A DNA stretch of 64,000 bases from a virus, in the UHGV virus genome UHGV-0066004. One strand, written 5' to 3'. The position numbers and the translations under genes are program-made. Under the pieces are notes generated by a model. The model saw only the letters and a list, made by a program, of their open reading frames with translations, did not search any database and was not told the origin of the DNA. This document shows, piece after piece, positions 1,504 to 34,503 of this stretch (the first letter of the stretch is position 1; every line of letters begins with the position of its first letter).

Positions 1504-1516
1504 TAGGTGATTAACT

Positions 1517-2032
1517 ATGATTGATATCTACTTACAAGATGCTCATGCAGATTTCCTTAAAACGATGCTTAAAAAGTTTATGGCTTCACAGGGTGATAAT
1601 GAAGCATCTTTTAAAATAGTCACATGTGGCGACGAAGCTGGTTTTGTTGAGATTGAACATGAAGATACTGGAAAGACTGTTTGTAAGTTACCTGATAGCA
1701 TGTTCTCTAACACGTTCTTAACAAAGACTAGTATAAATGTTAAGCTTGTTCCTCAGATTGAAACATACTCTGGTACAGATTACCCTAAAGGTTTTAAGTC
1801 ATTGATGAAGTACTTCTTAGATGACTTTGTGGGTAATCTTCTGAGGGAGGTAAAAGAAAGTCGTACAGTGTTGACTGTAGAGAACATGGGAGGAACTATC
1901 AAGGTCACTTCTGACTGTTTTGTTATGAGCCTCTTCGACTTCGTTCCTAAGAACTTTGATGGTATTCTGGATGAAGAAGATGACTGTGTAGACTTTATAT
2001 TGGTTCTTGAACCAGTTTTTGAGGTTAAATAG
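1517..2032 (+). CDS. hypothetical protein
   Basis: 171-aa ORF. Confidence 0.5.
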   Translation: MIDIYLQDAHADFLKTMLKKFMASQGDNEASFKIVTCGDEAGFVEIEHEDTGKTVCKLPDSMFSNTFLTKTSINVKLVPQIETYSGTDYPKGFKSLMKYFLDDFVGNLLREVKESRTVLTVENMGGTIKVTSDCFVMSLFDFVPKNFDGILDEEDDCVDFILVLEPVFEVK

Positions 2033-3780: not shown

Positions 3781-4144
3781 CAGTATTCTTTGTGTTCTTC
3801 TCAGTAATAGCTTGCAAGGCTGATACTGATTGAGCCAGATTGTTCACACTGTCAGAGAATTTATCAAGAGTTTTGGTAAGTTTTGCGTTTTCACCCTTAA
3901 CGTTCTCTAACTGAACTTTCTGGTTCTCCATCCCTAGCTGAATCAGTCTCATGTCAGACTGTAAATCACGAATAGCTGAATAGTTACTTTTGGAATAATT
4001 ATCTAGCTGCTGTAACTTTGTTGTGACAGACACTTCTTGTTTACCACTTGAAACTTGCATCGTGGTATACATCCCAATAACACTAAAAATACCAACTACA
4101 ATTGCACCAATATTATTTTTAAAAGCTTCCTCTAGCCACTTCAT
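3773..4144 (-). CDS. hypothetical membrane-anchored coiled-coil protein
   Basis: 123 aa; N-terminal hydrophobic segment IGAIVVGIFSVIGMYTTM then coiled-coil-like sequence. Confidence 0.5.
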   Translation of the reverse strand: MKWLEEAFKNNIGAIVVGIFSVIGMYTTMQVSSGKQEVSVTTKLQQLDNYSKSNYSAIRDLQSDMRLIQLGMENQKVQLENVKGENAKLTKTLDKFSDSVNNLAQSVSALQAITEKNTKNTEK

Positions 4145-4418: not shown

Positions 4419-6812
4419 TTAAGCAGTTCTTACCCAAGCCATTAACTTGTAGAACTGGTTAGTAACACTAAATGCTGAACCAGAACCTGTACCACCAGTG
4501 TTACCACTAACTGTATGGGTGTGAGCACCAATACCTACAGAGTGGGTGTGAGCACCAGTGTTACTTGTAGTACCAGACCATGTGTGTGTATGGTTACCAG
4601 TCGTGTTAGTGTTAGGGAACTTGTTATCAGTTCTGTCAAGCCAGTCAAGAGTTCTCGTCTTGTTATTGCTAACAGTTGTATAACCGTACTGAGCATCACC
4701 ACCATTAACCAATAGCAGACCTAAGTGGTGAGCGTGGTTACCAGCAGCACTTGTTGTACCACTTACAGAGTGAGTATGACCACCAGTGCTATTAGTGCTC
4801 TTCGTACCATAATCAAAAGATGAAGTGGTAGCAGAGAAACTATGGGTGTGTGATGGTAAGTTACCAACAGCTAACGTCACAGAATCTGAACCACCTGTTG
4901 TAGCAACATCTGAACCGTTTGCTGCTGCAATTCTGATAGTTCTACCAACACCATTATTCAGGTACGTCCAAGTTAACCCAGGAAGTGCTGTATTGGGGTC
5001 AACATTACTGTTAAACCACGTTACAATACCTACTGGATAGATTTTATTCAGGTCTGTAGAGTCACTAATTGCTTCTGCAATCTTCTGGTCAGTTTCAGCT
5101 TTAGTGTATGCACCAATTTCTGAAGGGGTTGGTTTATCTTGGTCTGTATAGATTTTAGACCATGCCTTCTCAAAACCATACCCATCTCGTGCAGTCCTGT
5201 AAAAAACACCACCATTCCTGTAGATAAACTTAAACTGTGCAGATGGTGTTGAGCCACCACCAATAAACATCTGATAAACTAGTTGTGATGCACCCCCAGT
5301 TTTCATTGTAACATTATACAGACCAGTTCTAGCATTCCAAGCAATACCATCCCCATCACCAACCTCTGTACCATTGCCAGTAGAGATAGCATACATGTAC
5401 CTATAGTCTGCGGTAGATTGCGTGTAATATCTAGCATCTAAGTTAGAGAAATCAGAAGGTTGAACTTGACCAGTAATGGCTAAATTCTTATTCGCAACAA
5501 TTGCTGATGGTTCAAGGGCAATTTGAGTACCAGAGTAACTATTGTTTAAGGTTACCACATTAGAGTTTGGGCCACCTACACCTAACCACCACCTCGATAC
5601 GTTCGCGGTATCCACACCACGGATATATAGTGGTTGACCTTGTGTTAAGTTTTTTAATACTAAGCCTTCATTATTTGATACAATAGTCTGCACATTCACG
5701 AAAGTGTTAGACACATTAATCTTAGCAAGATTATTCAAAGTAGCTGCTGGAATGTATCTAGAGTCAATGTTAGTCCAATCAGATGGTTGAATTTGACCAG
5801 TGATTTTTACACTCTTGTTAAATGTAGCACCAGACGAGTTTAAGACAATTGAGGTATTGCCCTTGTAATCGTAAAATGTGATATTGTCATTTGCATCACC
5901 TTTACCGATATACCACAGATTATTGTTTTCAACATCTTTTGCTAGGATGAACAAAGACTCATTAACAGCTTTATTTTTTAGCATGATAGCAGCAGCATTA
6001 GAGCTAACACTAACATAGTTGCTGAAGGTGTTTAAACCACTAAAAGTGTTATTCGCAGTTAACTGTGCAAACCTATGATTAGCAACTGTCTGAGTGAAGT
6101 ATCTAGCATCTAAGTTAGAGAAGTCAGAAGGCTGAACTTGACCCATGACTCTTAGTGTCTTGTTAAATGACGCTGTTGCGTTAAGGATTAACATTGAGCC
6201 AGTGGCACGATTGTACAGATAAACATTAGTGTTGTTTGCATTTCTCTGTCCAACATACCACGTTTGCTGGTTATTAGCATCTCTACCCTGAATATATGAA
6301 GCTCCTGCATTAGTTGCTTTCTTAAGAGTTAACTGCTCACCATCAACGACAATTGCTTGCCTAATGTTGAAGTTATTTGTTACAGCCAACCTTGCATATC
6401 TTGCATCATTCTCTTTATTAGTTCTCATCCCAAGTTCATTAGGACTTGGTTTATTCAGAGTATGATAAACAGTTGCTGACCTTGAAGCATCTGCAATAGT
6501 TAGCCTAAGACCATTTGCGTTAATTTTAAAAGTCTTTAAAACATCCCCAATATTAATCTCAGAAGAGCCTGTTGGGTCAAATACTGCCTTACCACCATAA
6601 AGTAACTTAACAATCCCTAAGTCACCCGTCATAGTGCTACCAGCAATCTGAACAAATCTTTCAAGTTTAAAAGATGCTAAGAAGTCTTGATAGGTCATTC
6701 GACGGTCTTCATCACCCAGCATTTCAGGTCTCTTTTTAACTCTGACATGAAGAAGGTCATCTGAACGGATTGTATCGATTGAGTTTAACTCACTCAACTT
6801 GTAATCTGCCAT
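4419..6812 (-). CDS. tail fiber protein (large)
   Basis: 797 aa; three internal repeats of G-Q-[VI]-Q-P-S-D-[FW]-[ST]-N-[LI]-D-[AS]-R-Y; His-x-His-rich C-terminus; distal to baseplate genes. Confidence 0.8.
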
Positions 6813-25726: not shown

Positions 25727-27343
25727 TCAACGTCTAAGCCCCTCATACGGGTTTCCTCTCACTAAATCTGTGTGAGCACCCATTGATGGTGGCTTGAATA
25801 ATTTAACTTCGTTAAGACTGTTGAAAGCATCACTGGTAGCATCCACTTGGTCATCTTTAGTTTTGCCGTCACCACAAAAACCTTCAAGTTCTTGAAAGTA
25901 AGCTTCATTCCAACTACCTCTCAAGACTTTTACAAGTCCAGCTTCAGAAGCAGCAGAAAATCCCGCAAAGCGGGTAACTTTATCTTTATTTGTTGGTTTG
26001 GCTCTTGCTCGATAACCTTTCTCGGCAAGTTTCCTGATGAGGGATGTTGCGTAGGATTTACCAGCAGCGCCTGGGTCTTGAGGGATAAAAATACCAGTTC
26101 GCTTACCGTCACTTTCAGCAGTCAAATTAATTTGTGTTTCGACTCCAGAGGGTCTATCTCTAAATCTTACTACATCAATGATATAATAGCAACCGTCTTT
26201 TTTAGATTTACCCATCTTAACACCTGCTGTCCAGTCTGGATTAGGGTTAATCTCAGATGGTAAAGTTGCTGCTAAGTCCCATGCTCTAACATCAAATACA
26301 TCTTCTGGGAGTGAATCAACAACCTCACACCATTGCCTTTGCCAATAGTTTGAACCTTCTGCACGAGCCTTCCAGTTACCGAAACGAAGTCTTGCAACGT
26401 TTACAGGGGTGTTGTTTTCCAACTTACCACGGTACTTAGGTTCTAAGAAGTCAAGGATTGGGTTATCATCAATCGTACCAGAGATAAAGGTGTATGTTTG
26501 AGGAATCTCAAGAGGGAACATTTCAAGAATCTTGTCTCTCTCCCAATCAGAAACCATCACACCATCGTTCATTACATACCAACGAATACGACCACATTTT
26601 TCAGGGTCTGGATAGCCTTCTTCATCTAAGAATGGCTCTACCCAATCGTAAATAAAGTGGTCTCTGTCTGGGTTCATGGAAATCTTCATGTATGAATCAC
26701 CTTCAGCACCAGAACGTAGACGGGTTTGTAGGTATGAAATCTGTGAAGCAGAGAAGTGTGTACCTTCGTCAAAGTAAATAGCTGAGTATTCAATACCCTG
26801 ATGACCTTCAGCGTGCTTTTCAAGTTCTAGATAGGTAAACTTGATAGTTGCCCCAGAAGGGAATGTGATAGTCATCTTCTGCTCGTGAGGAACCCCACCA
26901 AACTTACCAAATAGTTTCTTTGCAGCAGGCCACAAACCACCTTGTAACTGTGTTGTATTTCGACGGAAATATACAGCGTTATAATTAGGGTCGTCAATAA
27001 ACCTTAAAGAGTCCATTAACAATGCAGCAGTCTTACCAGCACCCGCAGCACCACCATAGAGAACCAAGTCAGCATTAGTATTTAAAAAGACCTCTTGAGA
27101 ACCCGGCTGAGGGGCTACATAGTTCTTATCAGTCATCAATTTGAAGATAAGTCTAACTTGGTCTGGTGTGTATCTTAATAAAGTCAGAATTTGAGTTGGA
27201 AGGAATTTAGAGGGGTCTTTACCGAATGATTTGATAATTTCTTTTACTTCATCAGAAAGCCCCAACTCTCCAGCTAGGACTTTCCTAACATCTTCCACTC
27301 GCTTCTGCTTAACAGCATTTAAGTCCATTAAGCACCTCCGCAA
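25727..27343 (-). CDS. terminase large subunit
   Basis: 538 aa; Walker A-like LYGGAAGAGKT; followed by portal. Confidence 0.85.
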   Translation of the reverse strand: MRRCLMDLNAVKQKRVEDVRKVLAGELGLSDEVKEIIKSFGKDPSKFLPTQILTLLRYTPDQVRLIFKLMTDKNYVAPQPGSQEVFLNTNADLVLYGGAAGAGKTAALLMDSLRFIDDPNYNAVYFRRNTTQLQGGLWPAAKKLFGKFGGVPHEQKMTITFPSGATIKFTYLELEKHAEGHQGIEYSAIYFDEGTHFSASQISYLQTRLRSGAEGDSYMKISMNPDRDHFIYDWVEPFLDEEGYPDPEKCGRIRWYVMNDGVMVSDWERDKILEMFPLEIPQTYTFISGTIDDNPILDFLEPKYRGKLENNTPVNVARLRFGNWKARAEGSNYWQRQWCEVVDSLPEDVFDVRAWDLAATLPSEINPNPDWTAGVKMGKSKKDGCYYIIDVVRFRDRPSGVETQINLTAESDGKRTGIFIPQDPGAAGKSYATSLIRKLAEKGYRARAKPTNKDKVTRFAGFSAASEAGLVKVLRGSWNEAYFQELEGFCGDGKTKDDQVDATSDAFNSLNEVKLFKPPSMGAHTDLVRGNPYEGLRR

Positions 27344-27775: not shown

Positions 27776-27851
27776 TGGAGAATCCGAAGGGACTCGAACC
27801 CTTATAAACCTGTTTTGCAGACAGGCACATAGCCATTTCTGTCACGGATTC
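27776..27851 (-). tRNA. tRNA-Cys (GCA)
   Basis: manual cloverleaf; acceptor GAATCCG/CGGATTC, anticodon loop CTGCAAA, CCA encoded. Confidence 0.75.
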
Positions 27852-27855
27852 AAAT

Positions 27856-27948
27856 TGGAGGAAGATACCAGACTTGAACTGGTACACCGATTTCTCAGCT
27901 ACTGGCAGTTTAGCAAACTGCTCCCTTACCTTTTAGGGTTAATCTTCC
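27856..27948 (-). tRNA. tRNA-Ser (GCT), type II
   Basis: 93 nt with long variable arm; anticodon loop TTGCTAA. Confidence 0.7.
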
Positions 27949-27950
27949 AT

Positions 27951-28685
27951 TTATTTCTGTAATGCGTTCTTCATTTCTGGTGTTGCAATAGTGTCAATTA
28001 CACCAGTTTTACAAGCATCATCAAACCAGTCTGGTAAGATACCTGCTAAGAACCCATTGATATTCGTTTTAAGGTACTCTGCAATAAGGGCAGCTTCTTC
28101 TTCAATCATCTGCACAACTTCATCTGCATAAGCTGTAATCTTTGAGATACCTTCATTAATCTTACTGACAGCTTGGTTAGCTAAATCAGAAACAGTATCA
28201 AGACCCTTGTCAATAGCGTCTTGTAAGTCACTTAATACATCGTTAACACTCTCTAGTGTACTGTTAATCGTATCAATAGCTTTTTGACCATATTCTGTAG
28301 CAACACCCATAATACCACTGAACGGTGTACAACCAACTTGTTCTCCTGCTGCACCCATAACATTGGAATATCCCTTTGCTACCTGCATACGTGATGAAAA
28401 CTCATCAATAGATTTTTGACCGTAGTCTGTCAGGGTCTTAGTAGTTGCTGTAGTGCTTGTAAGGCTTGTTGTAAAGCTGTTTAGAAGGACTGTTGTAAGT
28501 CCAGCAGCAACAAGCTTATCCTTTACTGTAGGGTCTGATACAGAGCTAATAGAGCTTACAAGTGATGTAGAGGCAGCTACGGTTCCACCGAGAACTGCTG
28601 CACCAGTAATAAGGGGGTTAGAAAACCCTTTACCGGTTTTTAAGAGATTGAAAATCTCCTTACCTTGTTCTGTCATCTCTTTCAT
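27951..28685 (-). CDS. hypothetical protein inside tRNA array
   Basis: track ORF 27951..28748 trimmed to internal Met (MKEMTEQ) because its 5' end overlaps a tRNA. Confidence 0.5.
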   Translation of the reverse strand: MKEMTEQGKEIFNLLKTGKGFSNPLITGAAVLGGTVAASTSLVSSISSVSDPTVKDKLVAAGLTTVLLNSFTTSLTSTTATTKTLTDYGQKSIDEFSSRMQVAKGYSNVMGAAGEQVGCTPFSGIMGVATEYGQKAIDTINSTLESVNDVLSDLQDAIDKGLDTVSDLANQAVSKINEGISKITAYADEVVQMIEEEAALIAEYLKTNINGFLAGILPDWFDDACKTGVIDTIATPEMKNALQK

Positions 28686-28703
28686 TAAGCACCTTTGAAA
28701 TTG

Positions 28704-28778
28704 GTAGTCCAGTGGGATTTGAACCCTCTTCTCATGTTTTTCAGACACGCGCTTTAACCATATAAGCTACTTGGACTA
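28704..28778 (-). tRNA. tRNA-Phe (GAA)
   Basis: acceptor TAGTCCA/TGGACTA perfect; anticodon loop CTGAAAA. Confidence 0.7.
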
Positions 28779-28783
28779 TAAAT

Positions 28784-28859
28784 TGGGGTGACCTACGGGA
28801 TTTGAACCCGTATAGACCATGTTCACAGCATGGGTCATTACCGTTTATGATAAGGCCAC
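28784..28859 (-). tRNA. tRNA-His (GTG)
   Basis: anticodon stem CCATG/CATGG, loop CTGTGAA. Confidence 0.7.
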
Positions 28860-28890
28860 ATTTAAGGACTCTCGTAAGAATCCTTAGAAG

Positions 28891-28966
28891 TGGCAGCGGC
28901 ATAAGGATTTGAACCTTAATAAGACAGCTTCAGAGACTGCTGCATTGCCAGTTATGCTATGCCGCT
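28891..28966 (-). tRNA. tRNA-Gln (CTG), tentative
   Basis: acceptor AGCGGCA/TGCCGCT; anticodon loop CTCTGAA with G-U closed stem. Confidence 0.6.
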
Positions 28967-28971
28967 AAATT

Positions 28972-29050
28972 TGGTACTCCATATCGGATTCGAACCGATA
29001 CATAACACAGATTTTAAGTCTGGCCTCTCTGCCAATTGGAGTAATGGAGC
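28972..29050 (-). tRNA. tRNA with Leu anticodon TAA, atypical short variable arm
   Basis: 79 nt; T-arm ATCGG-TTCGAAT-CCGAT; loop CTTAAAA; A73. Confidence 0.55.
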
Positions 29051-29052
29051 AT

Positions 29053-29128
29053 TGGCGGGGGATGTTGGAATTGAACCAACTTCTTCGATTTCAAAGACCG
29101 AGGTTTTAACCTTGTAAACTAATCCCCT
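29053..29128 (-). tRNA. tRNA-Gln (TTG)
   Basis: anticodon stem TCGGT/ATCGA, loop CTTTGAA. Confidence 0.65.
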
Positions 29129-29136
29129 TTAAATCT

Positions 29137-29694
29137 TTACTTTCTCAGTGGATGAATAAAGAATGCCAACATAACTCTTTCCCTTGAGAATGCTCTTTCT
29201 TCTGGGACAACACTTTTTAGTTTCCATCCAATATAAATTCTCCAGTAAAATTGTTTACCAAAGATTTTAATTGATGGGATAAAAGCGAATAATCCCCAAG
29301 CATTACTGTTCCACATTAGGAGATAACCTGTCTGATTATCTTCAGGGTCAGAACTTACGTTGATATTACCTTTCCACTTAGTAACATCTTTTACATCTCT
29401 TCCTAATACATGGTAAGAGAAGTTATAAGCTTTGTTTCTCCAGAGCCATCCGACTCTTTGCATGTAGACACCTAGTTTACCAATCCATCTGATATTAGCC
29501 CATCTTTTAACGTGACCTTCATCACCATCAATTGGGTTGTCATATGTCTCCATCCATCTGAACCCGAAAGGTAAGTGTCCTTTCTTCTCACTGTAGAATG
29601 GAACTACGAAAGGTGCTAAGATAACTGCTAGTATTGCTGCAAGTGGTTCTAGCAAAGCTAAGAAAATCCATGAAGCATATTTTAAGTATCTCAT
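29137..29694 (-). CDS. hypothetical membrane protein
   Basis: 185 aa; hydrophobic N-terminus, Trp-rich. Confidence 0.5.
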   Translation of the reverse strand: MRYLKYASWIFLALLEPLAAILAVILAPFVVPFYSEKKGHLPFGFRWMETYDNPIDGDEGHVKRWANIRWIGKLGVYMQRVGWLWRNKAYNFSYHVLGRDVKDVTKWKGNINVSSDPEDNQTGYLLMWNSNAWGLFAFIPSIKIFGKQFYWRIYIGWKLKSVVPEERAFSRERVMLAFFIHPLRK

Positions 29695-29933
29695 TGTCTA
29701 ACCCTCGTAAGGAGGTAAGCATTATTACTTGTTTCTGAGCTTTCTGGTAACATTGTCTCAAAATTGACACTTTTAAGTTGTCTTCCACCAAAGCAATGAC
29801 CAATAAATCTTTCTACTTTTATTGGGTCGCATTCCCATCCGACTTTTAAGAAAATGTGGGTATCTATAGTGGGAACCCTTACAAACTCAATACTATTGGG
29901 ATTTTCATGTTCAACGACGATTAATGTTTGCAT
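29691..29933 (-). CDS. hypothetical protein
   Basis: 80 aa, start-coupled to downstream ORF. Confidence 0.45.
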   Translation of the reverse strand: MQTLIVVEHENPNSIEFVRVPTIDTHIFLKVGWECDPIKVERFIGHCFGGRQLKSVNFETMLPESSETSNNAYLLTRVRQ

Positions 29934-29941
29934 AAATTCCT

Positions 29942-30017
29942 CTTGCTTATCTGGCGCAGGATAAGGGATTCGAACCCCTATTAACAGTTTCGTAGACTGT
30001 TGCTCTATCCATTTGAA
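29942..30017 (-). tRNA. tRNA-Arg (ACG)
   Basis: acceptor GCAGGAT/ATCCTGC; D-arm GTTC-AAATGGATA-GAGC; loop CTACGAA. Confidence 0.75.
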
Positions 30018-30022
30018 CTAAT

Positions 30023-30100
30023 CCTGCAAAATTGGTGTTCCAAGACGGATTCGAACCGTCACTAATACAAGGTTTGAGCTTGCATCCTCTGCCAATTGGG
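30023..30100 (-). tRNA. tRNA with Leu anticodon CAA, atypical short variable arm
   Basis: 78 nt; anticodon stem GCAAG/CTTGT, loop CTCAAAC; A73. Confidence 0.55.
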
Positions 30101-30101
30101 A

Positions 30102-30176
30102 TACTGGAACATGGTACTCACTAAAGGACTTGAACCTTTTTCTTCATCTTGTAAGGGTGGTGTTTTACCATATAAA
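30102..30176 (-). tRNA. tRNA-like, anticodon tentatively TAC (Val), weak anticodon stem
   Basis: good acceptor, D-arm and T-arm; anticodon stem only 3 of 5 pairs. Confidence 0.45.
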
Positions 30177-30276
30177 CTAAGCGAGTGTGAAAGAGGTCTG
30201 AAGTTGTGCCGCTAACTCAACTCCGTGGAATTTGTTACGGTCTTCAGTTGACACCAGCGGTCTTTCACTTGACCTC
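30176..30276 (-). ncRNA. structured RNA candidate (non-tRNA) within tRNA array
   Basis: terminal complementarity AGAGGTC...GACCTCT and internal CUGAAGACCG motifs related to the Y-RNA-like family. Confidence 0.3.
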
Positions 30277-30348
30277 TGAATTGGTGCTGCTCACAGGACT
30301 CGAACCCGCATTTCCATCCTTACAAGGGATGTGTAATAGCCAATTATA
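30272..30348 (-). tRNA. tRNA-Thr (TGT)
   Basis: anticodon stem CATCC/GGATG, loop CTTGTAA. Confidence 0.7.
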
Positions 30349-30355
30349 CGAAAGC

Positions 30356-30430
30356 AGCATTAATTTGGAGCATCCAGAGGGAATCGAACCCTCAACCTCA
30401 GTTTGGAAGACTGTAATTTTCCCGTTTAAA
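30356..30430 (-). tRNA. tRNA-Gly (TCC)
   Basis: acceptor GCATCCA/TGGATGC; loop CTTCCAA. Confidence 0.7.
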
Positions 30431-30436
30431 CTATGG

Positions 30437-30512
30437 ATGCACTAATTGGTGGAGAAGCAGGGAATTGAACCCTGTACTTAAGTTTGCAAAACTTATGTTT
30501 TAACCATGTAAA
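30437..30512 (-). tRNA. tRNA-Ala (TGC)
   Basis: anticodon stem TAAGT/ACTTA, loop TTTGCAA; T-arm CAGGG-TTCAATT-CCCTG. Confidence 0.7.
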
Positions 30513-30518
30513 CTACAT

Positions 30519-30594
30519 CCCCAATGTATGGTACAGGTGGAGGGAATTGAACCCATCGTCTTACTGATTAAGAGTCAGCCGCATAACCATTTTG
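30519..30594 (-). tRNA. tRNA-Lys (CTT), tentative
   Basis: anticodon stem GCTGA/TCAGT, loop CTCTTAA; weak T-stem. Confidence 0.55.
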
Positions 30595-30601
30595 CTACAC
30601 C

Positions 30602-30679
30602 TGCATTAATTTGGTAGGAGACAAGGGATTCGAACCCTCAAACACCAACTTCTAAGGATGGTAGGTTTACCAATTACCG
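30602..30679 (-). tRNA. tRNA with Leu anticodon TAG, atypical short variable arm
   Basis: 78 nt; T-arm GAGGG-TTCGAAT-CCCTT; loop CTTAGAA; A73. Confidence 0.5.
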
Positions 30680-30756
30680 TCAATCTCCCATTAAATCTTT
30701 TTAGAGAACTTCTAAGAACCTAAGCAACAAGGTTCCACAACAAGCTGTAATAACCT

Positions 30757-30783
30757 TAGAAGCCCTCTAAAAAGACCTAAAAA
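30757..30783 (-). terminator. stem-loop terminator candidate inside tRNA array
   Basis: aaagacc-loop-ggtcttt palindrome with U-run on minus-strand reading. Confidence 0.4.
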
Positions 30784-30937
30784 GGTCTTTGCATAGTCTT
30801 GTTTAATCCGGTGACTAGAACCTTTGGAGAGCTTGATATTATCTCTTCTCCGTGACACATACTAGGTGCTTTACTGTGCTTGTACGACAATACACGAGGG
30901 ATACCAAAGCAACATCCGAATGAAGCTTGGCTTTAAA

Positions 30938-31025
30938 CCTTATTAGGCGGTAAGTAAAGGAGTCGAACCCTCACCGTATCTCTACAGTGGCAACTGTTTT
31001 CAAGACAGTTTGGCTACCATTAGCC
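30938..31025 (-). tRNA. tRNA-Ser (TGA), type II
   Basis: 88 nt, long variable arm; anticodon stem ACTGT/ACAGT, loop CTTGAAA. Confidence 0.7.
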
Positions 31026-31038
31026 GCTACCTACCCCT

Positions 31039-31121
31039 AATAAGACTTTGGCATGGGACGGAGGAGTTGAACCCCTTTGAAACGGTTTTGGAGGCCGTTG
31101 CTCATGCCTTAGAGTCTTAAC
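31039..31121 (-). tRNA. tRNA-like, anticodon tentatively CCA (Trp), extended D region
   Basis: perfect acceptor ATGGGAC/GTCCCAT; loop CTCCAAA; about 7 extra nt in D region. Confidence 0.45.
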
Positions 31122-31263
31122 ATCGTCCCATATTATAATTCGAAGCTTACCGTATTATCTCAACACTGTAAAGCCCCTTCTCAGATTATTTACATGTTCT
31201 GGAAAACATGAGATACAGACCACCTCCCTACAGGAAGACCCGCTTAGGTCGTCTAAGTAATCT

Positions 31264-31340
31264 GCTAACTAATTGGCACACCCTACAGGATTCGAACCTG
31301 TAACTAACGATTTAGAAGACCGTTGCTCTATCCAATTGAA
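31264..31340 (-). tRNA. tRNA-Arg (TCT)
   Basis: D-arm GTTC-AATTGGATA-GAGC; loop CTTCTAA. Confidence 0.75.
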
Positions 31341-31587
31341 CTAAGGGTGCATTAATCTTTAAAGACTCTCTTAGAAAGCCCTTAAAGATGCCCACCTTAT
31401 TAATCATACCGTGGGCTAGTACGCCAAATTCTTTGATGAGGGATTGGAAGACCTCACTGGTGTTTAGCCTATCAAGCTACTGCCAGAAAAACATTGTCGT
31501 TTGCATTTATTTTAAATTTGCAAAATAGACGCTACGCAACGAAAACTAAGGTTACTATAAAGTAGTCACATCTCAATGTCAACAACT

Positions 31588-31663
31588 TTATTGAAATTGG
31601 TACTGGTAGGTGGAATCGAACCACCGATGTTCCCTTATCAGGGGAGTGTTATAACCTTCTTAA
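31588..31663 (-). tRNA. tRNA-Ile (GAT)
   Basis: T-arm GGTGG-TTCGATT-CCACC; loop CTGATAA. Confidence 0.7.
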
Positions 31664-31664
31664 C

Positions 31665-31741
31665 TATACCAGCTTGGAGGTTCAGATGGGAATCGAACCC
31701 ACATTCATAGGGCTTATGAGACCCTTGCATTACCTTATCTG
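31665..31741 (-). tRNA. tRNA-Met (CAT)
   Basis: perfect acceptor GGTTCAG/CTGAACC; loop CTCATAA. Confidence 0.7.
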
Positions 31742-31745
31742 CGAC

Positions 31746-31821
31746 TGAACCATATTGGTAGAAGTGGAGGGATTCGAACCCATCGCCTGTCAGATTAAAA
31801 GTCTGCTGCATCACCATTCTG
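31746..31821 (-). tRNA. tRNA-Lys (TTT)
   Basis: T-arm GGGTTCGAATCCC; loop CTTTTAA. Confidence 0.7.
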
Positions 31822-31825
31822 CTAC

Positions 31826-31969
31826 ACTTCCATTAAATTATCTTTGTAGATAAGCTACCCAGACTTGCTTAAGGTCTGTAGCGATGTGCCTTGTTGGGTT
31901 TAAATCTAGAATTTACCCTTTCACCCTTTGTGGTCGCATACTCACAGGTAAGCTTAATAACTTATCTAC
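31826..31969 (-). ncRNA. structured RNA candidate closed by a 19-bp perfect inverted repeat
   Basis: aattatctttgtagataag at 31826-31844 is the exact reverse complement of 31951-31969; internal CCAGAC/GTCTGG hairpin; no convincing ORF. Confidence 0.4.
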
Positions 31970-31970
31970 A

Positions 31971-32102
31971 AAGATAATTACCAGACCGTTGTTTATCATC
32001 TTAAGTGCTACCATTACACCAACTCGACATCTGCCGAGTGAAGGAATCGAACCTTCGCCTTTTCTTTACCGGAGAAATAGATTGTTTAAGTTTTGCTGTA
32101 AA
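31971..32102 (-). ncRNA. Y RNA-like (YrlA-type) candidate: circularly permuted tRNA-like module closed by a bulged terminal helix
   Basis: minus strand reads 5' CAGAAGACCG ... T-arm GAAGG-TTCGATT-CCTTC, acceptor 3' strand ACTCGGC, AGAT loop, acceptor 5' strand GTCGAGT, TG, D-arm GTGT-AATGGTA-GCAC ... AACGGTCTGG 3'; ends pair with AAG bulge; no anticodon arm. Confidence 0.55.
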
Positions 32103-32115
32103 CGGTCTTCTGTAA

Positions 32116-32188
32116 ATTTGTTGAGCCAGACCAAGTTTAAATTTTCAAAATTAAATTGGCTTGAAATTTCATACGTTCTTGCTGTATT
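32116..32188 (-). ncRNA. Y RNA-like helix element (no tRNA-like module)
   Basis: same closing helix (CAGAAGACCAA ... TTGGTCTGG) around an AT-rich hairpin. Confidence 0.4.
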
Positions 32189-32249
32189 TGGTCTTCTGCT
32201 CCTTTAAAGGATACTCGTAAGGACCCTTTAAGGGAGGGGCTAAATAGCC

Positions 32250-32327
32250 CTCTCAAAATTGGCGGTTACGAAGGGATTTGAACCCTCATCATCTCCCGTG
32301 ACAGGGGAGTATTTTAACCAAATTAAA
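32250..32327 (-). tRNA. tRNA-Asp (GTC)
   Basis: perfect anticodon stem CTCCC/GGGAG, loop CTGTCAC. Confidence 0.75.
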
Positions 32328-32332
32328 CTACA

Positions 32333-32420
32333 TAACCTTTATTGGTGTGCCGTGTAGGAGTCGAACCTACCGAGTCTCAATGACAAGGGATTTACAGTCC
32401 CCACCGCTACCATCTACGGG
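32333..32420 (-). tRNA. tRNA-Tyr (GTA), type II
   Basis: 88 nt with long variable arm; loop CTGTAAA. Confidence 0.7.
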
Positions 32421-32429
32421 ATAACGACA

Positions 32430-32506
32430 CATTTAAATTTGGCGGTTAGTCAGGGATTCGAACCCTGTGCCATTCGCTTAACAGGCGACCGCACATACCT
32501 TATATG
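32430..32506 (-). tRNA. tRNA-Asn (GTT)
   Basis: T-arm CAGGG-TTCGAAT-CCCTG; loop CTGTTAA. Confidence 0.65.
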
Positions 32507-32517
32507 CTTCCTAACCT

Positions 32518-32577
32518 TAATACATTGCCAGACCGTGTTTTTTCTTTTATCCGCAAAAAGTATTTTGTTGCTGAATA
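32518..32577 (-). ncRNA. Y RNA-like helix element
   Basis: closing helix GCAGAAGACCGT ... ACGGTCTGGC with 3-nt bulge. Confidence 0.4.
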
Positions 32578-32583
32578 CGGTCT

Positions 32584-32660
32584 TCTGCAAAATTGGAGGC
32601 GGGTGCAGGAGTCGAACCTGCCGATACCATGCTAATGAGACATGTGAGACGCCCTTTCTC
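32584..32660 (-). tRNA. tRNA (CAT); Met/Ile2 type, 1-72 mismatch
   Basis: loop CTCATTA; acceptor TGCGGGT/ACCCGCC with T1-C72 mismatch. Confidence 0.55.
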
Positions 32661-32671
32661 TATACCCGCAA

Positions 32672-32743
32672 TTCTCAATGACCAGACCAAATATCTTCTT
32701 TGTCCGATTTCGTGTCAGATGAGTAGATTAAGTTTGCTGTAAT
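32672..32743 (-). ncRNA. Y RNA-like helix element
   Basis: closing helix CAGAAGACCAATT ... ATTTGGTCTGG. Confidence 0.4.
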
Positions 32744-32750
32744 TGGTCTT

Positions 32751-32828
32751 CTGTCAAAACTGGCGTTCCAGAAGGGATTTGAACCCTCAGATATCCACTT
32801 TGAAAGAGTGGTGACTTTACCATTTTGT
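32751..32828 (-). tRNA. tRNA-Glu (TTC)
   Basis: perfect acceptor GTTCCAG/CTGGAAC; anticodon stem CCACT/AGTGG, loop CTTTCAA. Confidence 0.75.
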
Positions 32829-32835
32829 CTACTGG

Positions 32836-32912
32836 AACATTAATTTGGTCTCTGTTGGAGGACTTGAACCTCCGGCCTTACCGCCCCAAACGGAACGCTC
32901 TACCAAGCTGAG
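32836..32912 (-). tRNA. tRNA-Pro (TGG)
   Basis: D-arm GCTC-AGCTTGGTA-GAGC; T-arm GGAGG-TTCAAGT-CCTCC; loop TTTGGGG. Confidence 0.7.
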
Positions 32913-33087
32913 CTAAACAGAGATAAACTTTTCAAACTCTATGTAACCACTTTAACATTATTTTTTAGTGGTTGTCAAGAACTTTTTTAAAATATTTTTC
33001 AGTATCTTAGAAAAGCTCTCGTTTCGTTTCTATGTAGAACATATTAAAGGGTATCAAACACATTGTCAATACCCTTTTTAAAACTTT

Positions 33088-34503
33088 TTACCAGATATAA
33101 CGGTCAATCATTACTGCTTTGAGCATTACACTGATTGGGTCAAACTTCTCACCACCAAGCAGAGCTTTTAAAGTAGCTGGAGAAAAACCAGATACCATTG
33201 CTACACCGTTATCCTTAACAGACACTTCGCAAGTACCATTACGGTTTGCTAAGTACCAGAATACCAGTTGAGGCATTTCGTATCCAGCTTTTTTGTACTT
33301 ACTCTGAATTGCTTCAAAGTTTGTACGACCGTTAGCTCCATCAACCTGATTGAACTCCATATCGGAGAAGATGATAAGCTTACTTGGCATATCTTTCTGA
33401 GTCAAGTTGTTTCTTTTACCTGTTTCAAGAATACGGTCAAAAGCTGCTTGTAAGTTAGTTGAGCCATATTCAACGTGTCGCATCACCTGACGATGACGGT
33501 TTCGTAAATCACCACTCAGTTCGATGAAGTGAGGGTTTGTTGAATAAACCATCAACTCATTCTTAAAGCAACCTGTATTACGTTCTGCTACATACAATGC
33601 AAGTGAAACACCAATATCAAGAGCAGTAATTGAACCAAAATTCACCCAAGACATTGAGCTTGAAACATCAGACATACACAAGATGTTTTCACCCTCTGCC
33701 ATCCAGTTTGGTAGTGCTTTCCACTGCTCATTAGCAACATCTGCATTACCATACTTAACAGATTTAATTACATCGTATGGGTAAACAGCACCAGCATTAA
33801 TCTTAGTCTCACCCTTTGATAAGGACTCGATGTAAGCTTTGTAGCGTTCTCCATCTTTGCGGTTAAACAGTTTTTGGTAACGTGCAGCAGCAAGTGAAGG
33901 AATCTTACTGTAGTCAATCTTACCAAACTCATTAGCAGAGATTTTTTGCTCAACTGTATCAGATAGTGCAGACAACAGTGTGCGGTACTCTTTCTCACTC
34001 AAGTTGGCAAACTTGCAGAAACGTTTTACAAACTGCTTATGACGTGGTTTGACTCGTGGTAACCACTTAGCCGCCAAACCTGCTGTTGCAGGGTCTAGTA
34101 ATGCTGCTTCTAGATGTTTGAAGGCATCTGTCTCGAAACAAGTACCTACGAAGATTTTGAAGTCATCAAAACGACCAAGTTCTGCAATCTTATCCATAAT
34201 GCGAAGAACCTGCGTAGGCTCTAAAACTTTGTCTTCAATCGCTTGAAGTAAAACAGTTCTGAAGGCTTTACGCTCACCCATACCTTCTCGTACATCTCGC
34301 ATATGAAGCAAAATACGAACTGCAACATCAACATCCTCACGCAAAGCTTTGTAGAACAGGTCTGGTAAGATTTCTACGTTGCTACGGCTTGAACCAGCAG
34401 CTTTGTAAAAGTCTACAAGAGCAGACATTGATGAAGTATGGTTTACAGCACCATTTTCAGTTCGACCTGCATGAAGGTGCGCATGTTTAAATAATTCGCT
34501 CAT
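33088..34503 (-). CDS. vWA-domain protein, candidate Ro60 (TROVE)-like RNA-binding protein
   Basis: 471 aa; C-terminal vWA with complete MIDAS set (DVSSS, GST, FSD); N-terminal ~270 aa helical domain of TROVE-like size; adjacent to tRNA/Y-RNA-like array. Confidence 0.6.
   Translation of the reverse strand: MSELFKHAHLHAGRTENGAVNHTSSMSALVDFYKAAGSSRSNVEILPDLFYKALREDVDVAVRILLHMRDVREGMGERKAFRTVLLQAIEDKVLEPTQVLRIMDKIAELGRFDDFKIFVGTCFETDAFKHLEAALLDPATAGLAAKWLPRVKPRHKQFVKRFCKFANLSEKEYRTLLSALSDTVEQKISANEFGKIDYSKIPSLAAARYQKLFNRKDGERYKAYIESLSKGETKINAGAVYPYDVIKSVKYGNADVANEQWKALPNWMAEGENILCMSDVSSSMSWVNFGSITALDIGVSLALYVAERNTGCFKNELMVYSTNPHFIELSGDLRNRHRQVMRHVEYGSTNLQAAFDRILETGKRNNLTQKDMPSKLIIFSDMEFNQVDGANGRTNFEAIQSKYKKAGYEMPQLVFWYLANRNGTCEVSVKDNGVAMVSGFSPATLKALLGGEKFDPISVMLKAVMIDRYIW

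Follow-up and report, generated by a model that had tools for sequence, protein, structure and literature searches.

The window, a 64,000-nt stretch of the virus genome UHGV-0066004, belongs to Felixounavirus, i.e. it is a Felix O1-like phage. ARAGORN calls a tRNA array in the window between the large terminase gene and a DUF2828/DUF7788 gene, with every one of its 26 tRNAs on the minus strand (Table 1). Three of these tRNAs carry leucine anticodons (UAA, CAA and UAG) and lack a long variable arm. A previous sequence-only reading of this DNA had described them as such and had taken them to be the only leucine candidates in the array; both claims are borne out, with no other leucine anticodon found. 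The same reading had the array cover all 20 amino acids, which proved to be one too many, as no tRNA-Trp is called in the array even with relaxed ARAGORN thresholds. Its interval for the UAA species was exact, and those for the CAA (30023-30100) and UAG (30602-30679) species were each 10 nt too low.

Table 1. The tRNA array of the window, its flanking genes, its type II comparators and the parts of the three leucine tRNAs
Feature	Position	Strand	Remarks
Large terminase gene, flanking the array	25727-27343		Pfam scan
Whole tRNA array	27776..32922	-	26 tRNAs / 19 amino acids; ARAGORN
tRNA-Ser(GCU), type II comparator	27856-27948	-	93 nt; ARAGORN
tRNA-Leu(UAA)	28972..29050	-	79 nt including encoded CCA; ARAGORN, Rfam 47.5 bits, arm parse
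tRNA-Leu(UAA) discriminator A73	28975	-	arm parse
tRNA-Leu(UAA) variable loop GUUAUGU	29000-29006	-	7 nt; arm parse
tRNA-Leu(UAA) anticodon	29014-29016	-	ARAGORN, arm parse
tRNA-Leu(CAA)	30033..30110	-	78 nt including CCA; ARAGORN, Rfam 44.0 bits, arm parse
tRNA-Leu(CAA) discriminator A73	30036	-	arm parse
tRNA-Leu(CAA) variable loop AUUAGU	30061-30066	-	6 nt; arm parse
tRNA-Leu(CAA) anticodon	30074-30076	-	ARAGORN, arm parse
tRNA-Leu(UAG)	30612..30689	-	78 nt including CCA; ARAGORN, Rfam 40.0 bits, arm parse
tRNA-Leu(UAG) discriminator A73	30615	-	arm parse
tRNA-Leu(UAG) variable loop UGUUU	30640-30644	-	5 nt; arm parse
tRNA-Leu(UAG) anticodon	30652-30654	-	ARAGORN, arm parse
tRNA-Ser(UGA), type II comparator	30946-31035	-	90 nt; ARAGORN
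tRNA-Tyr(GUA), type II comparator	32343-32430	-	88 nt; ARAGORN
DUF2828/DUF7788 gene, flanking the array on the other side	33088-34503		Pfam scan

All three leucine tRNAs are recognised as cloverleaves by ARAGORN and by the Rfam tRNA model RF00005, with scores above the gathering score of 29 bits that rank near the bottom of the array. The two programs give the same anticodons and the same short loops, so the mis-folding that the sequence-only reading had allowed for is refuted; automated folding could have assigned other anticodons or revealed a conventional long arm, and did neither. The lengths of 78-79 nt given earlier agree with ARAGORN, and the variable loops, given as 6-7 nt, are of that size in the UAA and CAA species and shorter in the UAG species, for a true range of 5-7 nt. 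None of the three has the variable region of more than 10 nt forming a stem-loop that defines a type II tRNA; as they combine a leucine anticodon with an armless variable loop of about 5 nt, they are type I tRNA-Leu by structure. The two tRNA-Ser and the tRNA-Tyr of the array are type II, as had been noted, with variable regions of approximately 15-22 nt.

The arm parse places a C27/U43 mismatch at the top of the anticodon stem of the UAA species and a U30/U40 mismatch within that of the UAG species. For the latter, Rfam uses a register shifted by 1 nt, with a U discriminator followed by ACCA, which we rejected in favour of the ARAGORN register because this yields A73 and CCA like all other tRNAs of the array. 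Single-sequence minimum free energy folds returned no cloverleaf for the three tRNAs (z-scores -0.3 to -1.8), and were not used as evidence either way because such failure is usual for unmodified tRNA sequences.

We examined the nucleotides on which leucine identity depends. According to a review, neither the long arm nor the anticodon is an identity element for E. coli tRNA-Leu, and an arm-less minimal tRNA-Leu is still charged. A73, a member of the LeuRS identity set, is present in all three phage tRNAs, as had been read from the sequence alone, and in 181/184 short viral Leu tRNAs. The U8:A14 pair and the Levitt pair A15:U48 are also present in all three, the last base of the variable loop being U; among the unique short viral Leu tRNAs, A15:U48 is found in 179/184 and U8 in 182/184. 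The Leu-type D-loop register, with G18G19 and A20a in a D-arm of 17 nt (AAUUGGNANA), is matched exactly by the UAA (CUCCAAUUGGCAGAGAG) and CAA (UCCCAAUUGGCAGAGGA) species and only approximately by the UAG species, whose irregular, weak D-arm of 18 nt (ACGGUAAUUGGUAAACCU) contains the motif with one more U ahead of A14 and is ambiguous in the register of its stem. The elbow contacts G18:U55, G19:C56 and U54:A58 are in place, with the T-loop UUCGAAU in all three.

The strict Leu signature was found in 148 of the 184 unique short viral Leu tRNAs; among 1788 class I tRNAs other than these, it was found in 7. In a sample picked without reference to leucine, short Leu tRNAs carry A73 in 28/28 and A15:U48 in 27/28 cases, and the strict signature occurs in 1/753 other class I tRNAs. 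Published tRNAscan-SE isotype scores for the counterparts in phage Sf14 are highest for Leu in all three cases (67.4, 49.1, 60.2); the anticodons are the same as in the window, and the anticodon loops are identical for the UAG and CAA species and differ at position 32 for the UAA species. The suggestion that these are unusual class I-like Leu tRNAs thus has the support of two independent programs, of the Leu identity nucleotides and of the Sf14 isotype scores.

With the E. coli tRNA-Leu leuZ, leuX, leuW and leuV, the phage tRNAs have in common A73, U8, A14, A15, G18G19, A20a and U48, the register of the 17-nt D-arm, and their anticodons, UAA, CAA and UAG; G1:U72 is also present in leuZ. An alignment with leuZ, leuX and leuV shows no variation at A14, G18, G19, A20a (column A21), U48 and A73 and conservation of 90% or more at U8 and A15. 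Spacing within the D-loop does not differ, and the arm accounts for the whole difference in length (variable regions of 5-7 nt in the phage tRNAs versus 13-15 nt). Overall identity to E. coli tRNA-Leu is only 55-63%, differences in the anticodon loops fall at positions 32, 37 and 38 (position 37 of the UAG species is A, that of E. coli tRNA-Leu(UAG) is G), and the D-stems of the UAA and CAA species have C12-G23 where E. coli has G12-C23. A BLAST search of 5,426 complete E. coli genomes gave no match to any of the three, which together with the low identity led us to reject a recent capture from the host.

The textbook view is that every bacterial tRNA-Leu has a long extra arm, and these phage tRNAs depart from it. 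Type I tRNA-Leu is already known from mitochondria and Streptomyces, and the phage tRNAs add to that kind. The tRNA-Leu(CAA) of Streptomyces coelicolor (PMC6614811) and its relatives in other Actinomycetota share with them a leucine anticodon, A73 and a D-arm of the type NCCCAAUUGGCAGAGGN, and have a variable loop of the 5-nt class where those of the window measure 7, 6 and 5 nt; outside this loop, the actinobacterial tRNAs are 75-78% identical to the UAA and CAA species. In contrast to them, the tRNAs of the window are phage-borne in Enterobacteria, where host tRNA-Leu are all type II where examined, and keep U48 and with it A15:U48, the Streptomyces tRNA having C48. Animal mitochondrial tRNA-Leu likewise has a short variable loop and A73 and A14 as identity elements; it has a mitochondrial LeuRS of its own, and its D/T-loop interactions are often degenerate, whereas the phage tRNAs have canonical G18G19 and UUCGAAU elbows and would require the bacterial LeuRS of the host. 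By sequence comparison, the UAA and CAA species fall into a type I tRNA-Leu lineage that Actinomycetota chromosomes carry as well, and do not derive from the tRNAs of the enterobacterial host.

The UAG species, as judged in the same way, is of a lineage common to T5-like phages. It is 83-85% identical to the 77-nt tRNA-Leu(UAG) of these phages, including BF23 tRNAL1, which has a 5-nt loop and the same sequence as FFH1 Leu(UAG). Outside Ounavirinae, tRNAL1 is the closest relative of the UAG species (83.8% over the aligned 95% of the query). T4, T5 and BF23 all have phage-borne tRNA-Leu in early tRNA clusters, but those of T4 (87 nt) and T5 (UAG, 85 nt) have long arms, unlike those of the window. 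At one and the same position in T5-like phages, Leu(UAG) is short in about 260 and long in about 55 records. The long allele of T5 and the short allele of BF23/FFH1 both lie next to tRNA-Ala(UGC) and are unrelated; they differ throughout, so that a simple deletion of the arm from the T5 tRNA was rejected, and the exchange looks like the replacement of a cassette. According to the GenBank record of BF23, tRNAL1 with its anticodon swapped to CUA is an "effective amber suppressor" (the inserted amino acid is unnamed), and such short tRNAs could serve as compact natural leucine scaffolds for suppressor design.

We found that short Leu tRNAs are common in phage tRNA clusters. With variable-loop lengths taken from a parser anchored on the T-arm, 28 of the 77 Leu tRNAs from viral arrays prove to be short. 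Since this Leu-independent sample is biased by short Leu tRNAs often carrying the selection motif, we corrected it by removing motif carriers, which leaves 14 of 58 (24-36%). None of 74 tRNA-Ser and none of 40 tRNA-Tyr in viral arrays is short (Fisher p = 3e-13 for the Leu contrast). TyrRS also makes use of the long arm of its tRNA, as the introduction to a structural paper states. Shortness confined to leucine agrees with the rule that the arm is needed by SerRS and not by bacterial LeuRS, and that therefore only Leu tRNAs are free to lose it. Arm loss in Leu and never in Ser or Tyr tRNAs makes the identity rules of the synthetases cleanly visible in evolution. In the literature that we searched, which included papers on Felix O1, Sf14, BF23 and the anticodon loops of phage tRNAs and lacked most subscription journals and with them the T5/BF23 tRNA work of the 1980s-2000s, Leu tRNAs without the arm are nowhere described for phages. 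All three genes stand as tRNA-Leu in GenBank and in the 2010 Felix O1 paper.

Next we considered whether these genes are maintained. Copies of the Leu tRNAs with at least 99% identity occur in hundreds of records (216 phage records for the UAA and 160 for the CAA species). Highly conserved Leu tRNAs without the arm are thus carried by phages of E. coli and Salmonella in hundreds of genomes. In Mooglevirus Sf13 the UAA species is 98.7% identical and the CAA and UAG species are both 100% identical, while the tRNA region overall is only 80-90% identical to that of the window, and the three are among the best-conserved array tRNAs between genera. With 98.7-100% identity across genera, the lost pairing, lost invariant bases and neutral drift expected of pseudogenes are absent. 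The Leu(UAG) allele of Felix O1 differs from that of the window by compensatory changes in the anticodon stem. Among short viral Leu tRNAs, stem positions are paired in 98% of cases versus 58-61% in partner-shuffled controls, figures that are partly inflated for the acceptor and T stems by a parser that retained only tRNAs with these stems mostly paired, and nearly every position shows 3-6 pair types. Comparison between the genera thus indicates that the three Leu tRNAs are under strong purifying selection.

Taken together, these results argue with good confidence that the window encodes three functional phage tRNA-Leu isoacceptors of class I architecture, probably charged by the host LeuRS and serving UUA, UUG and CUA. 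During infection, transcription of the array as a whole followed by processing would yield them, the CCA being already encoded, and they would then be charged with leucine by the host enzyme. The UAA and CAA species would read UUA/UUG and the UAG species CUA/CUN. All nucleotide features that E. coli-type LeuRS is reported to read are retained; the long arm alone is missing, and published work finds it dispensable for E. coli LeuRS. Leucine codons in the window are UUA in 29.8%, CUU in 26.5%, CUG in 14.2% and CUA in 11.0% of cases; at a phage GC content of 39%, the use of UUA and CUA is far above that of the host, which would depend on minor single-copy tRNAs for these two codons. The spread of conserved arm-less Leu tRNAs among these phages, with one homologue annotated as an efficient suppressor in E. 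coli, indicates by a natural example in vivo that the LeuRS, EF-Tu and ribosomes of Enterobacteria handle type I tRNA-Leu.

An explanation that concerns only why the arm is short, and leaves charging by LeuRS in place, is that shortness is adaptive and provides an escape from a host factor recognising long-arm tRNAs, e.g. a defence tRNA nuclease, so that leucine decoding is kept while host tRNA-Leu is attacked. Phage tRNAs have been proposed elsewhere to replace host tRNAs cut by defence nucleases, and eukaryotic Schlafen nucleases select type II tRNAs. The co-circulation of short and long Leu(UAG) alleles in T5-like phages would also be consistent with such pressure, as would anticodon loops that differ from those of the host (the UAG species has A37 rather than G37, and the CAA species has C38). 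However, none of our searches or tool results turned up a bacterial nuclease that acts specifically on type II or Leu tRNAs, type I tRNA-Leu is chromosomal in many Actinomycetota where evasion is unneeded, and synthetase constraints alone account equally well for the Leu-only pattern; we consider evasion rather unlikely. Its broadest form, in which type I tRNA-Leu is a "stealth" architecture spread by phages that keeps LeuRS recognition and escapes a host nuclease or factor recognising type II tRNAs, is improbable, and would, if true, account for the quarter to third of viral Leu tRNAs that are short and for the alternating alleles of T5-like phages.

It is very unlikely that the identity of the three tRNAs is altered, with another synthetase or ambiguous charging leading to UUA/UUG/CUA being partly decoded as another amino acid. 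Under the identity rules of E. coli, no synthetase that reads the anticodon is known to match UAA, CAA or UAG. A class I shape does drop one of the features separating Leu from other tRNAs, and the UAG species of Sf14 scores 65.7 for Ile2 and 63.4 for Lys, near its 67.4 for Leu. Nevertheless, the Leu model tops all three Sf14 counterparts, the LeuRS identity set is intact and conserved, its full signature is nearly absent from other class I tRNAs, and the arm parse shows that the G3:U70 pair is absent. Recoding of about 54% of leucine codons would moreover have a proteome-wide effect. A further point in favour of altered identity is experimental: Fan et al. 2019 (PMC6614811) describe E. coli LeuRS as charging type II tRNAs only and found it unable to charge the Streptomyces type I tRNA-Leu(CAA). 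That substrate has C48 and not U48. The same result counts against charging by the host LeuRS, as do a 2025 structural paper that treats the arm as a recognition element, contacting K809/R811 in the C-terminal domain of LeuRS, and the weak D-arm and stem mismatches described above. Nothing in the sequences themselves appears to support an altered identity.

That the three are decaying relics, or tRNA-like RNAs with another role, is highly improbable: the low Rfam scores, the anticodon-stem mismatches, the odd D-arm of the UAG species and the tRNAscan-SE labels "Pseudo" or "OTHER" on the Akh-2 CAA, phiR2-01 and Si3 homologues point that way, but the genes rank among the best conserved of the array between genera, their stems are maintained by compensatory changes, their invariant tertiary nucleotides are intact and the record for the BF23 homologue describes effective suppression. 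Low model scores are expected because short tRNAs here meet models trained on long-arm Leu, and annotation pipelines sometimes mislabel such genes as pseudo or OTHER.

We found with ARAGORN that the tRNA array of the window consists of 26 genes, all on the minus strand, lying between the large terminase gene and a gene for a DUF2828/DUF7788 protein. Three of them are tRNA-Leu genes with short variable loops (class I or type I), named here the UAA, CAA and UAG species after their anticodons. The sequence-only reading had placed the first exactly and the second and third each 10 nt too low; the Leu anticodons and A73 that it assigned were recovered by ARAGORN and the arm parse. It was also right that the variable regions are short, but not that they are 6-7 nt, since they measure 7 nt (UAA), 6 nt (CAA) and 5 nt (UAG). 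All three genes carry A73 and an encoded CCA. Ser(GCU), Ser(UGA) and Tyr(GUA) of the same array keep long arms (93, 90 and 88 nt), and are type II as had been read. The array covers 19 amino acids and not all 20 as had been supposed, with no tRNA-Trp called in it at default or relaxed ARAGORN thresholds.

Coordinates of the features discussed. Cloverleaves are written in the order acceptor / 8-9 / D-arm / 26 / anticodon stem / loop / stem / variable loop / T-arm / acceptor / discriminator / CCA.
Feature	Sequence	Coordinates	Strand	Length	Source	Cloverleaf (arm parse)
tRNA array	window	27776-32922	-		ARAGORN	
DUF7217 protein	window	27951-28748	-	265 aa		
tRNA-Leu(UAA)	window	28972-29050	-	79 nt	ARAGORN	GCUCCAU UA CUCCAAUUGGCAGAGAG G CCAGA CUUAAAA UCUGU GUUAUGU AUCGGUUCGAAUCCGAU AUGGAGU A CCA
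DUF7338 protein	window	29137-29694	-	185 aa		
tRNA-Leu(CAA)	window	30033-30110	-	78 nt	ARAGORN	GUUCCAG UA UCCCAAUUGGCAGAGGA U GCAAG CUCAAAC CUUGU AUUAGU GACGGUUCGAAUCCGUC UUGGAAC A CCA
tRNA-Leu(UAG)	window	30612-30689	-	78 nt	ARAGORN	GGGAGAU UG ACGGUAAUUGGUAAACCU A CCAUC CUUAGAA GUUGG UGUUU GAGGGUUCGAAUCCCUU GUCUCCU A CCA
D-arm of tRNA-Leu(UAG)	window	~30663-30680	-	18 nt		
tRNA-like element	window	31048-31131	-			
DUF2828/DUF7788 protein	window	33088-34503	-	471 aa		
Leu(UAG), long-arm allele	T5 (L003)	6625-6709		85 nt		
Leu(UAG), short allele	FFH1 (L001)	6005-6081		77 nt		
Leu(UAG), short allele (tRNAL1)	BF23 (L364)	3997-4073		77 nt		
tRNA-Sup-CTA	Aeromonas phage Akh-2 (L243)	1509-1580			record annotation	

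The Rfam tRNA model matches the three at 47.5 (UAA), 44.0 (CAA) and 40.0 bits (UAG), against a gathering score of 29, and these scores rank among the lowest of the array. Felixounavirus genomes, from Felix O1-like myoviruses of Escherichia and Salmonella, match the region at ~96% identity, and three tRNA-Leu genes are annotated at this place in many of their records. The 2010 paper on the Felix O1 genome gives 78 nt for Leu(TAG) and Leu(CAA) and 79 nt for Leu(TAA), and does not remark on their shape. At an identity of at least 99%, the UAA tRNA is present in 216 phage records and the CAA tRNA in 160, and the UAG tRNA exists as two alleles. Related phages carry the same Leu tRNAs: in Shigella phage Sf13, which belongs to a different genus (Mooglevirus) and whose tRNA region is overall 80-90% identical to the window, Leu(UAG) and Leu(CAA) are 100% and Leu(UAA) is 98.7% identical, placing the three among the best-conserved tRNAs of the array.

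Furthermore, the stems covary. The anticodon stem of Leu(UAG) is UCUCG/CGAGA in the Felix O1 allele and CCAUC/GUUGG in the window, and several two-strand changes between the alleles restore pairing around an unchanged CUUAGAA loop. In Erwinia phage Omen, which is more distant, Leu(UAA), Leu(CAA) and Leu(AAG) are also short, and pairing is fully restored in their acceptor, anticodon and T stems. Across 184 unique short viral Leu tRNAs, standard pairs occupy 98% of stem positions compared to 58-61% in partner-shuffled controls, with a parser that retained only tRNAs with mostly paired acceptor and T stems and left the D and anticodon stems unfiltered; nearly each stem position shows 3-6 pair types. 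The possibility that the three had been mis-folded is refuted.

The UAG species is the least canonical of the three. Its D-arm has an extra U before A14 and a C11:C24 mismatch in the canonical register, an alternative register gives G12-C24, G13-C23 and U-A22 pairs, and only two clear G-C pairs form in whichever register; ARAGORN and Rfam differ by 1 nt on this point. The window and Felix O1 alleles differ at position 11, which is either C or U, and no compensating change accompanies it. In addition, the anticodon stem has a U30:U40 mismatch, and position 37, which is G in the host tRNA (the m1G37 position), is A. In the UAA species, C27 and U43 are mismatched. Homologues are tagged 'pseudo' or 'OTHER' by some annotation pipelines.

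We scanned IMG/VR for Leu-type D-loops with class I spacing and obtained at least 120 matches. For a sample independent of Leu features, we searched viral sequences for two GGTTCGAATCC T-loops spaced 60-90 nt, which yielded 112 new loci. Among their unique tRNAs, variable loops of 5-6 nt are restricted to Leu (Leu 28/77, Ser 0/74, Tyr 0/40; Fisher p = 3e-13), and after removal of the Leu tRNAs carrying the selection motif 14 of 58 (24%) are short. A short Leu tRNA is present in 22 of the 49 loci holding any Leu tRNA. The named phages with short Leu tRNAs infect Escherichia, Salmonella, Shigella, Citrobacter, Erwinia, Yersinia, Cronobacter, Pectobacterium and Aeromonas. The record of Akh-2 annotates a suppressor tRNA-Sup-CTA in an array that also has three short Leu tRNAs.

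Leu-type D-loops with class I spacing were scanned for in bacteria as well, one genome per species. Among the matches listed, most are Actinomycetota chromosomes (Nocardia, Rhodococcus, Mycobacterium, Corynebacterium, Gordonia, Bifidobacterium, Arthrobacter) with mostly single genes of UAA, CAA or UAG anticodon, A73 in 111/111 and A15:U48 in 110/111. Type I tRNA-Leu is thus widespread in Actinomycetota as single chromosomal genes among these matches (L244-L363, e.g. L246 and L247), and reaches beyond the single Streptomyces tRNA-Leu(CAA) that the literature examined describes. A few Planctomycetota and Ahniellaceae MAG contigs have, within 8 kb, two or three type I Leu tRNAs that differ from one another. 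The window's UAA and CAA species are 75-78% identical to actinobacterial type I tRNA-Leu, with which they have a NCCCAAUUGGCAGAGGN-type D-arm in common, but only 55-59% identical to E. coli tRNA-Leu; by this comparison of sequences they belong to the type I tRNA-Leu lineage, and a recent truncation of host genes is rejected for both. E. coli K-12 leuZ, leuX, leuV/P/Q and leuW have variable regions of 13-15 nt, and BLAST of the three phage tRNAs against 5,426 complete E. coli genomes found no match.

Next we consider leucine identity. According to a 2023 identity review, the features read by E. coli LeuRS are A73, the Levitt pair A15:U48, the D-loop nucleotides G18G19 and A20a, and the D/T-loop tertiary pairs G18:U55, G19:C56 and U54:A58; A14 was added to this set by Fan et al. 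When we aligned the phage tRNAs to leuZ, leuX and leuV of E. coli, we found A14, G18, G19, A20a, U48, the T-loop and A73 invariant, U8 and A15 at least 90% conserved and the D-loop spacing AAUUGGNANA common to all, the sole systematic difference being an 8-10-nt gap at the arm position. A strict signature (A73, A15:U48, a 17-nt D-arm, in-register G18G19 and A20a) occurs in 148/184 short and 61/100 long viral Leu tRNAs, and in 7/1788 other class I tRNAs. In the Leu-independent sample, A73 is found in 28/28 and A15:U48 in 27/28 short Leu tRNAs, and the strict signature in 1/753 other class I tRNAs. The G3:U70 pair is absent from the window's three Leu tRNAs, and by E. coli identity rules no anticodon-reading synthetase is known to recognise UAA, CAA or UAG. 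In the published tRNAscan-SE isotype table of the related phage Sf14, the Leu model scores highest for every counterpart (67.4, 49.1 and 60.2). From these sequence features, an altered identity of the three appears unlikely, and the alternative reading, that they are class I-like Leu tRNAs, is supported.

The same 2023 review describes both the long arm and the anticodon as dispensable for E. coli LeuRS, a minimal tRNA-Leu without long arm and anticodon arm being still charged. In Fan et al. (2019), however, the type I tRNA-Leu(CAA) of Streptomyces proved not to be charged by E. coli LeuRS, an enzyme that the authors termed type II-only, and in Cho et al. (2025) the arm is salt-bridged to K809/R811 of the LeuRS C-terminal domain. 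The Streptomyces tRNA has the variable loop ACAGC and, since it carries C48 where the phage tRNAs have U48, we infer that its failure need not extend to them. The phage short Leu tRNAs bear on a live disagreement, whether or not the arm is needed by enterobacterial LeuRS.

In ~260 T5-like phage records there is a 77-nt tRNA-Leu(UAG) with 83-85% identity to the window's Leu(UAG). The GenBank record of the BF23 tRNA region (AJ604530) annotates this tRNA as tRNAL1, with the variable loop GUUUU and identical to that of FFH1, and notes that 'replacement of the anticodon with CUA sequence converts this tRNA into effective amber suppressor'. By this annotation, E. coli processes and charges an arm-less Leu tRNA of this lineage, and its ribosomes use it; the annotation names no inserted amino acid. 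T5 instead has at the same position, adjoining tRNA-Ala(UGC), an unrelated long-arm Leu(UAG), an allele shared by ~55 records; the T4 tRNA-Leu is 87 nt. Because T5-like phages carry either a long or an unrelated short Leu(UAG) at one position, and the HNH homing-endonuclease gene hegC adjoins it in T5, cassette exchange of tRNA alleles is suggested.

No aminoacyl-tRNA synthetase is described in the Felix O1 paper, and the tRNAs must therefore use host enzymes. Host LeuRS would load leucine onto the three, which would decode UUA/UUG and CUA (perhaps CUN). The Leu codons of 42 window ORFs are UUA 29.8%, CUU 26.5%, CUG 14.2%, UUG 12.8%, CUA 11.0% and CUC 5.7%. In E. coli, CUG makes up about half of Leu codons, and UUA and CUA are read by minor single-copy tRNAs. 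That arm loss is confined to Leu agrees with the rules of the synthetases: LeuRS, unlike SerRS, can dispense with the arm, and bacterial TyrRS uses it, as the introduction of a structural paper also states. The Felix O1 authors count Leu[TTA] among the codons likely aided by phage tRNA. The shortness itself may be neutral, a genome economy or adaptive.

Type I tRNA-Leu was already known from animal mitochondria and Streptomyces, the 2023 review placing the long arm on tRNA-Leu everywhere but animal mitochondria, and annotation of the window's genes as tRNA-Leu dates back to the publication of the Felix O1 genome. Within the literature that could be searched, including the Felix O1, Sf14, BF23 and phage-tRNA anticodon-loop papers among others, we found nothing to say that the arm is missing from phage Leu tRNAs, or often missing in phage arrays. 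They are an under-noticed natural case and involve no new mechanism.

The DUF2828/DUF7788 gene lies directly upstream of the array, and Sf13 shows a matching arrangement (gp19). The DUF7338 and DUF7217 proteins are embedded between tRNA sub-clusters, and in Sf13 the counterpart of the DUF7217 protein carries the annotation of a predicted receptor recognition protein. Finally, an unannotated tRNA-like element lies between tRNA-Ser(UGA) and tRNA-Arg(UCU). It has no default ARAGORN call and reaches only 23 bits against Rfam tRNA-Sec, and is conserved in 236 phage records (Felixounavirus 95-100%, Mooglevirus 87% identity). The element is predicted to fold with an acceptor-like stem of 8 bp, a small D-like hairpin, a stem of 5 bp whose 9-nt loop CCUCCAAAA includes CCA (the Trp anticodon), a T-arm containing UUCAACU, and G-CCA at the 3′ end. 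As the array is otherwise without tRNA-Trp, the element may be an aberrant tRNA-Trp, or else a T5-style 'tRNA-like stable RNA'.
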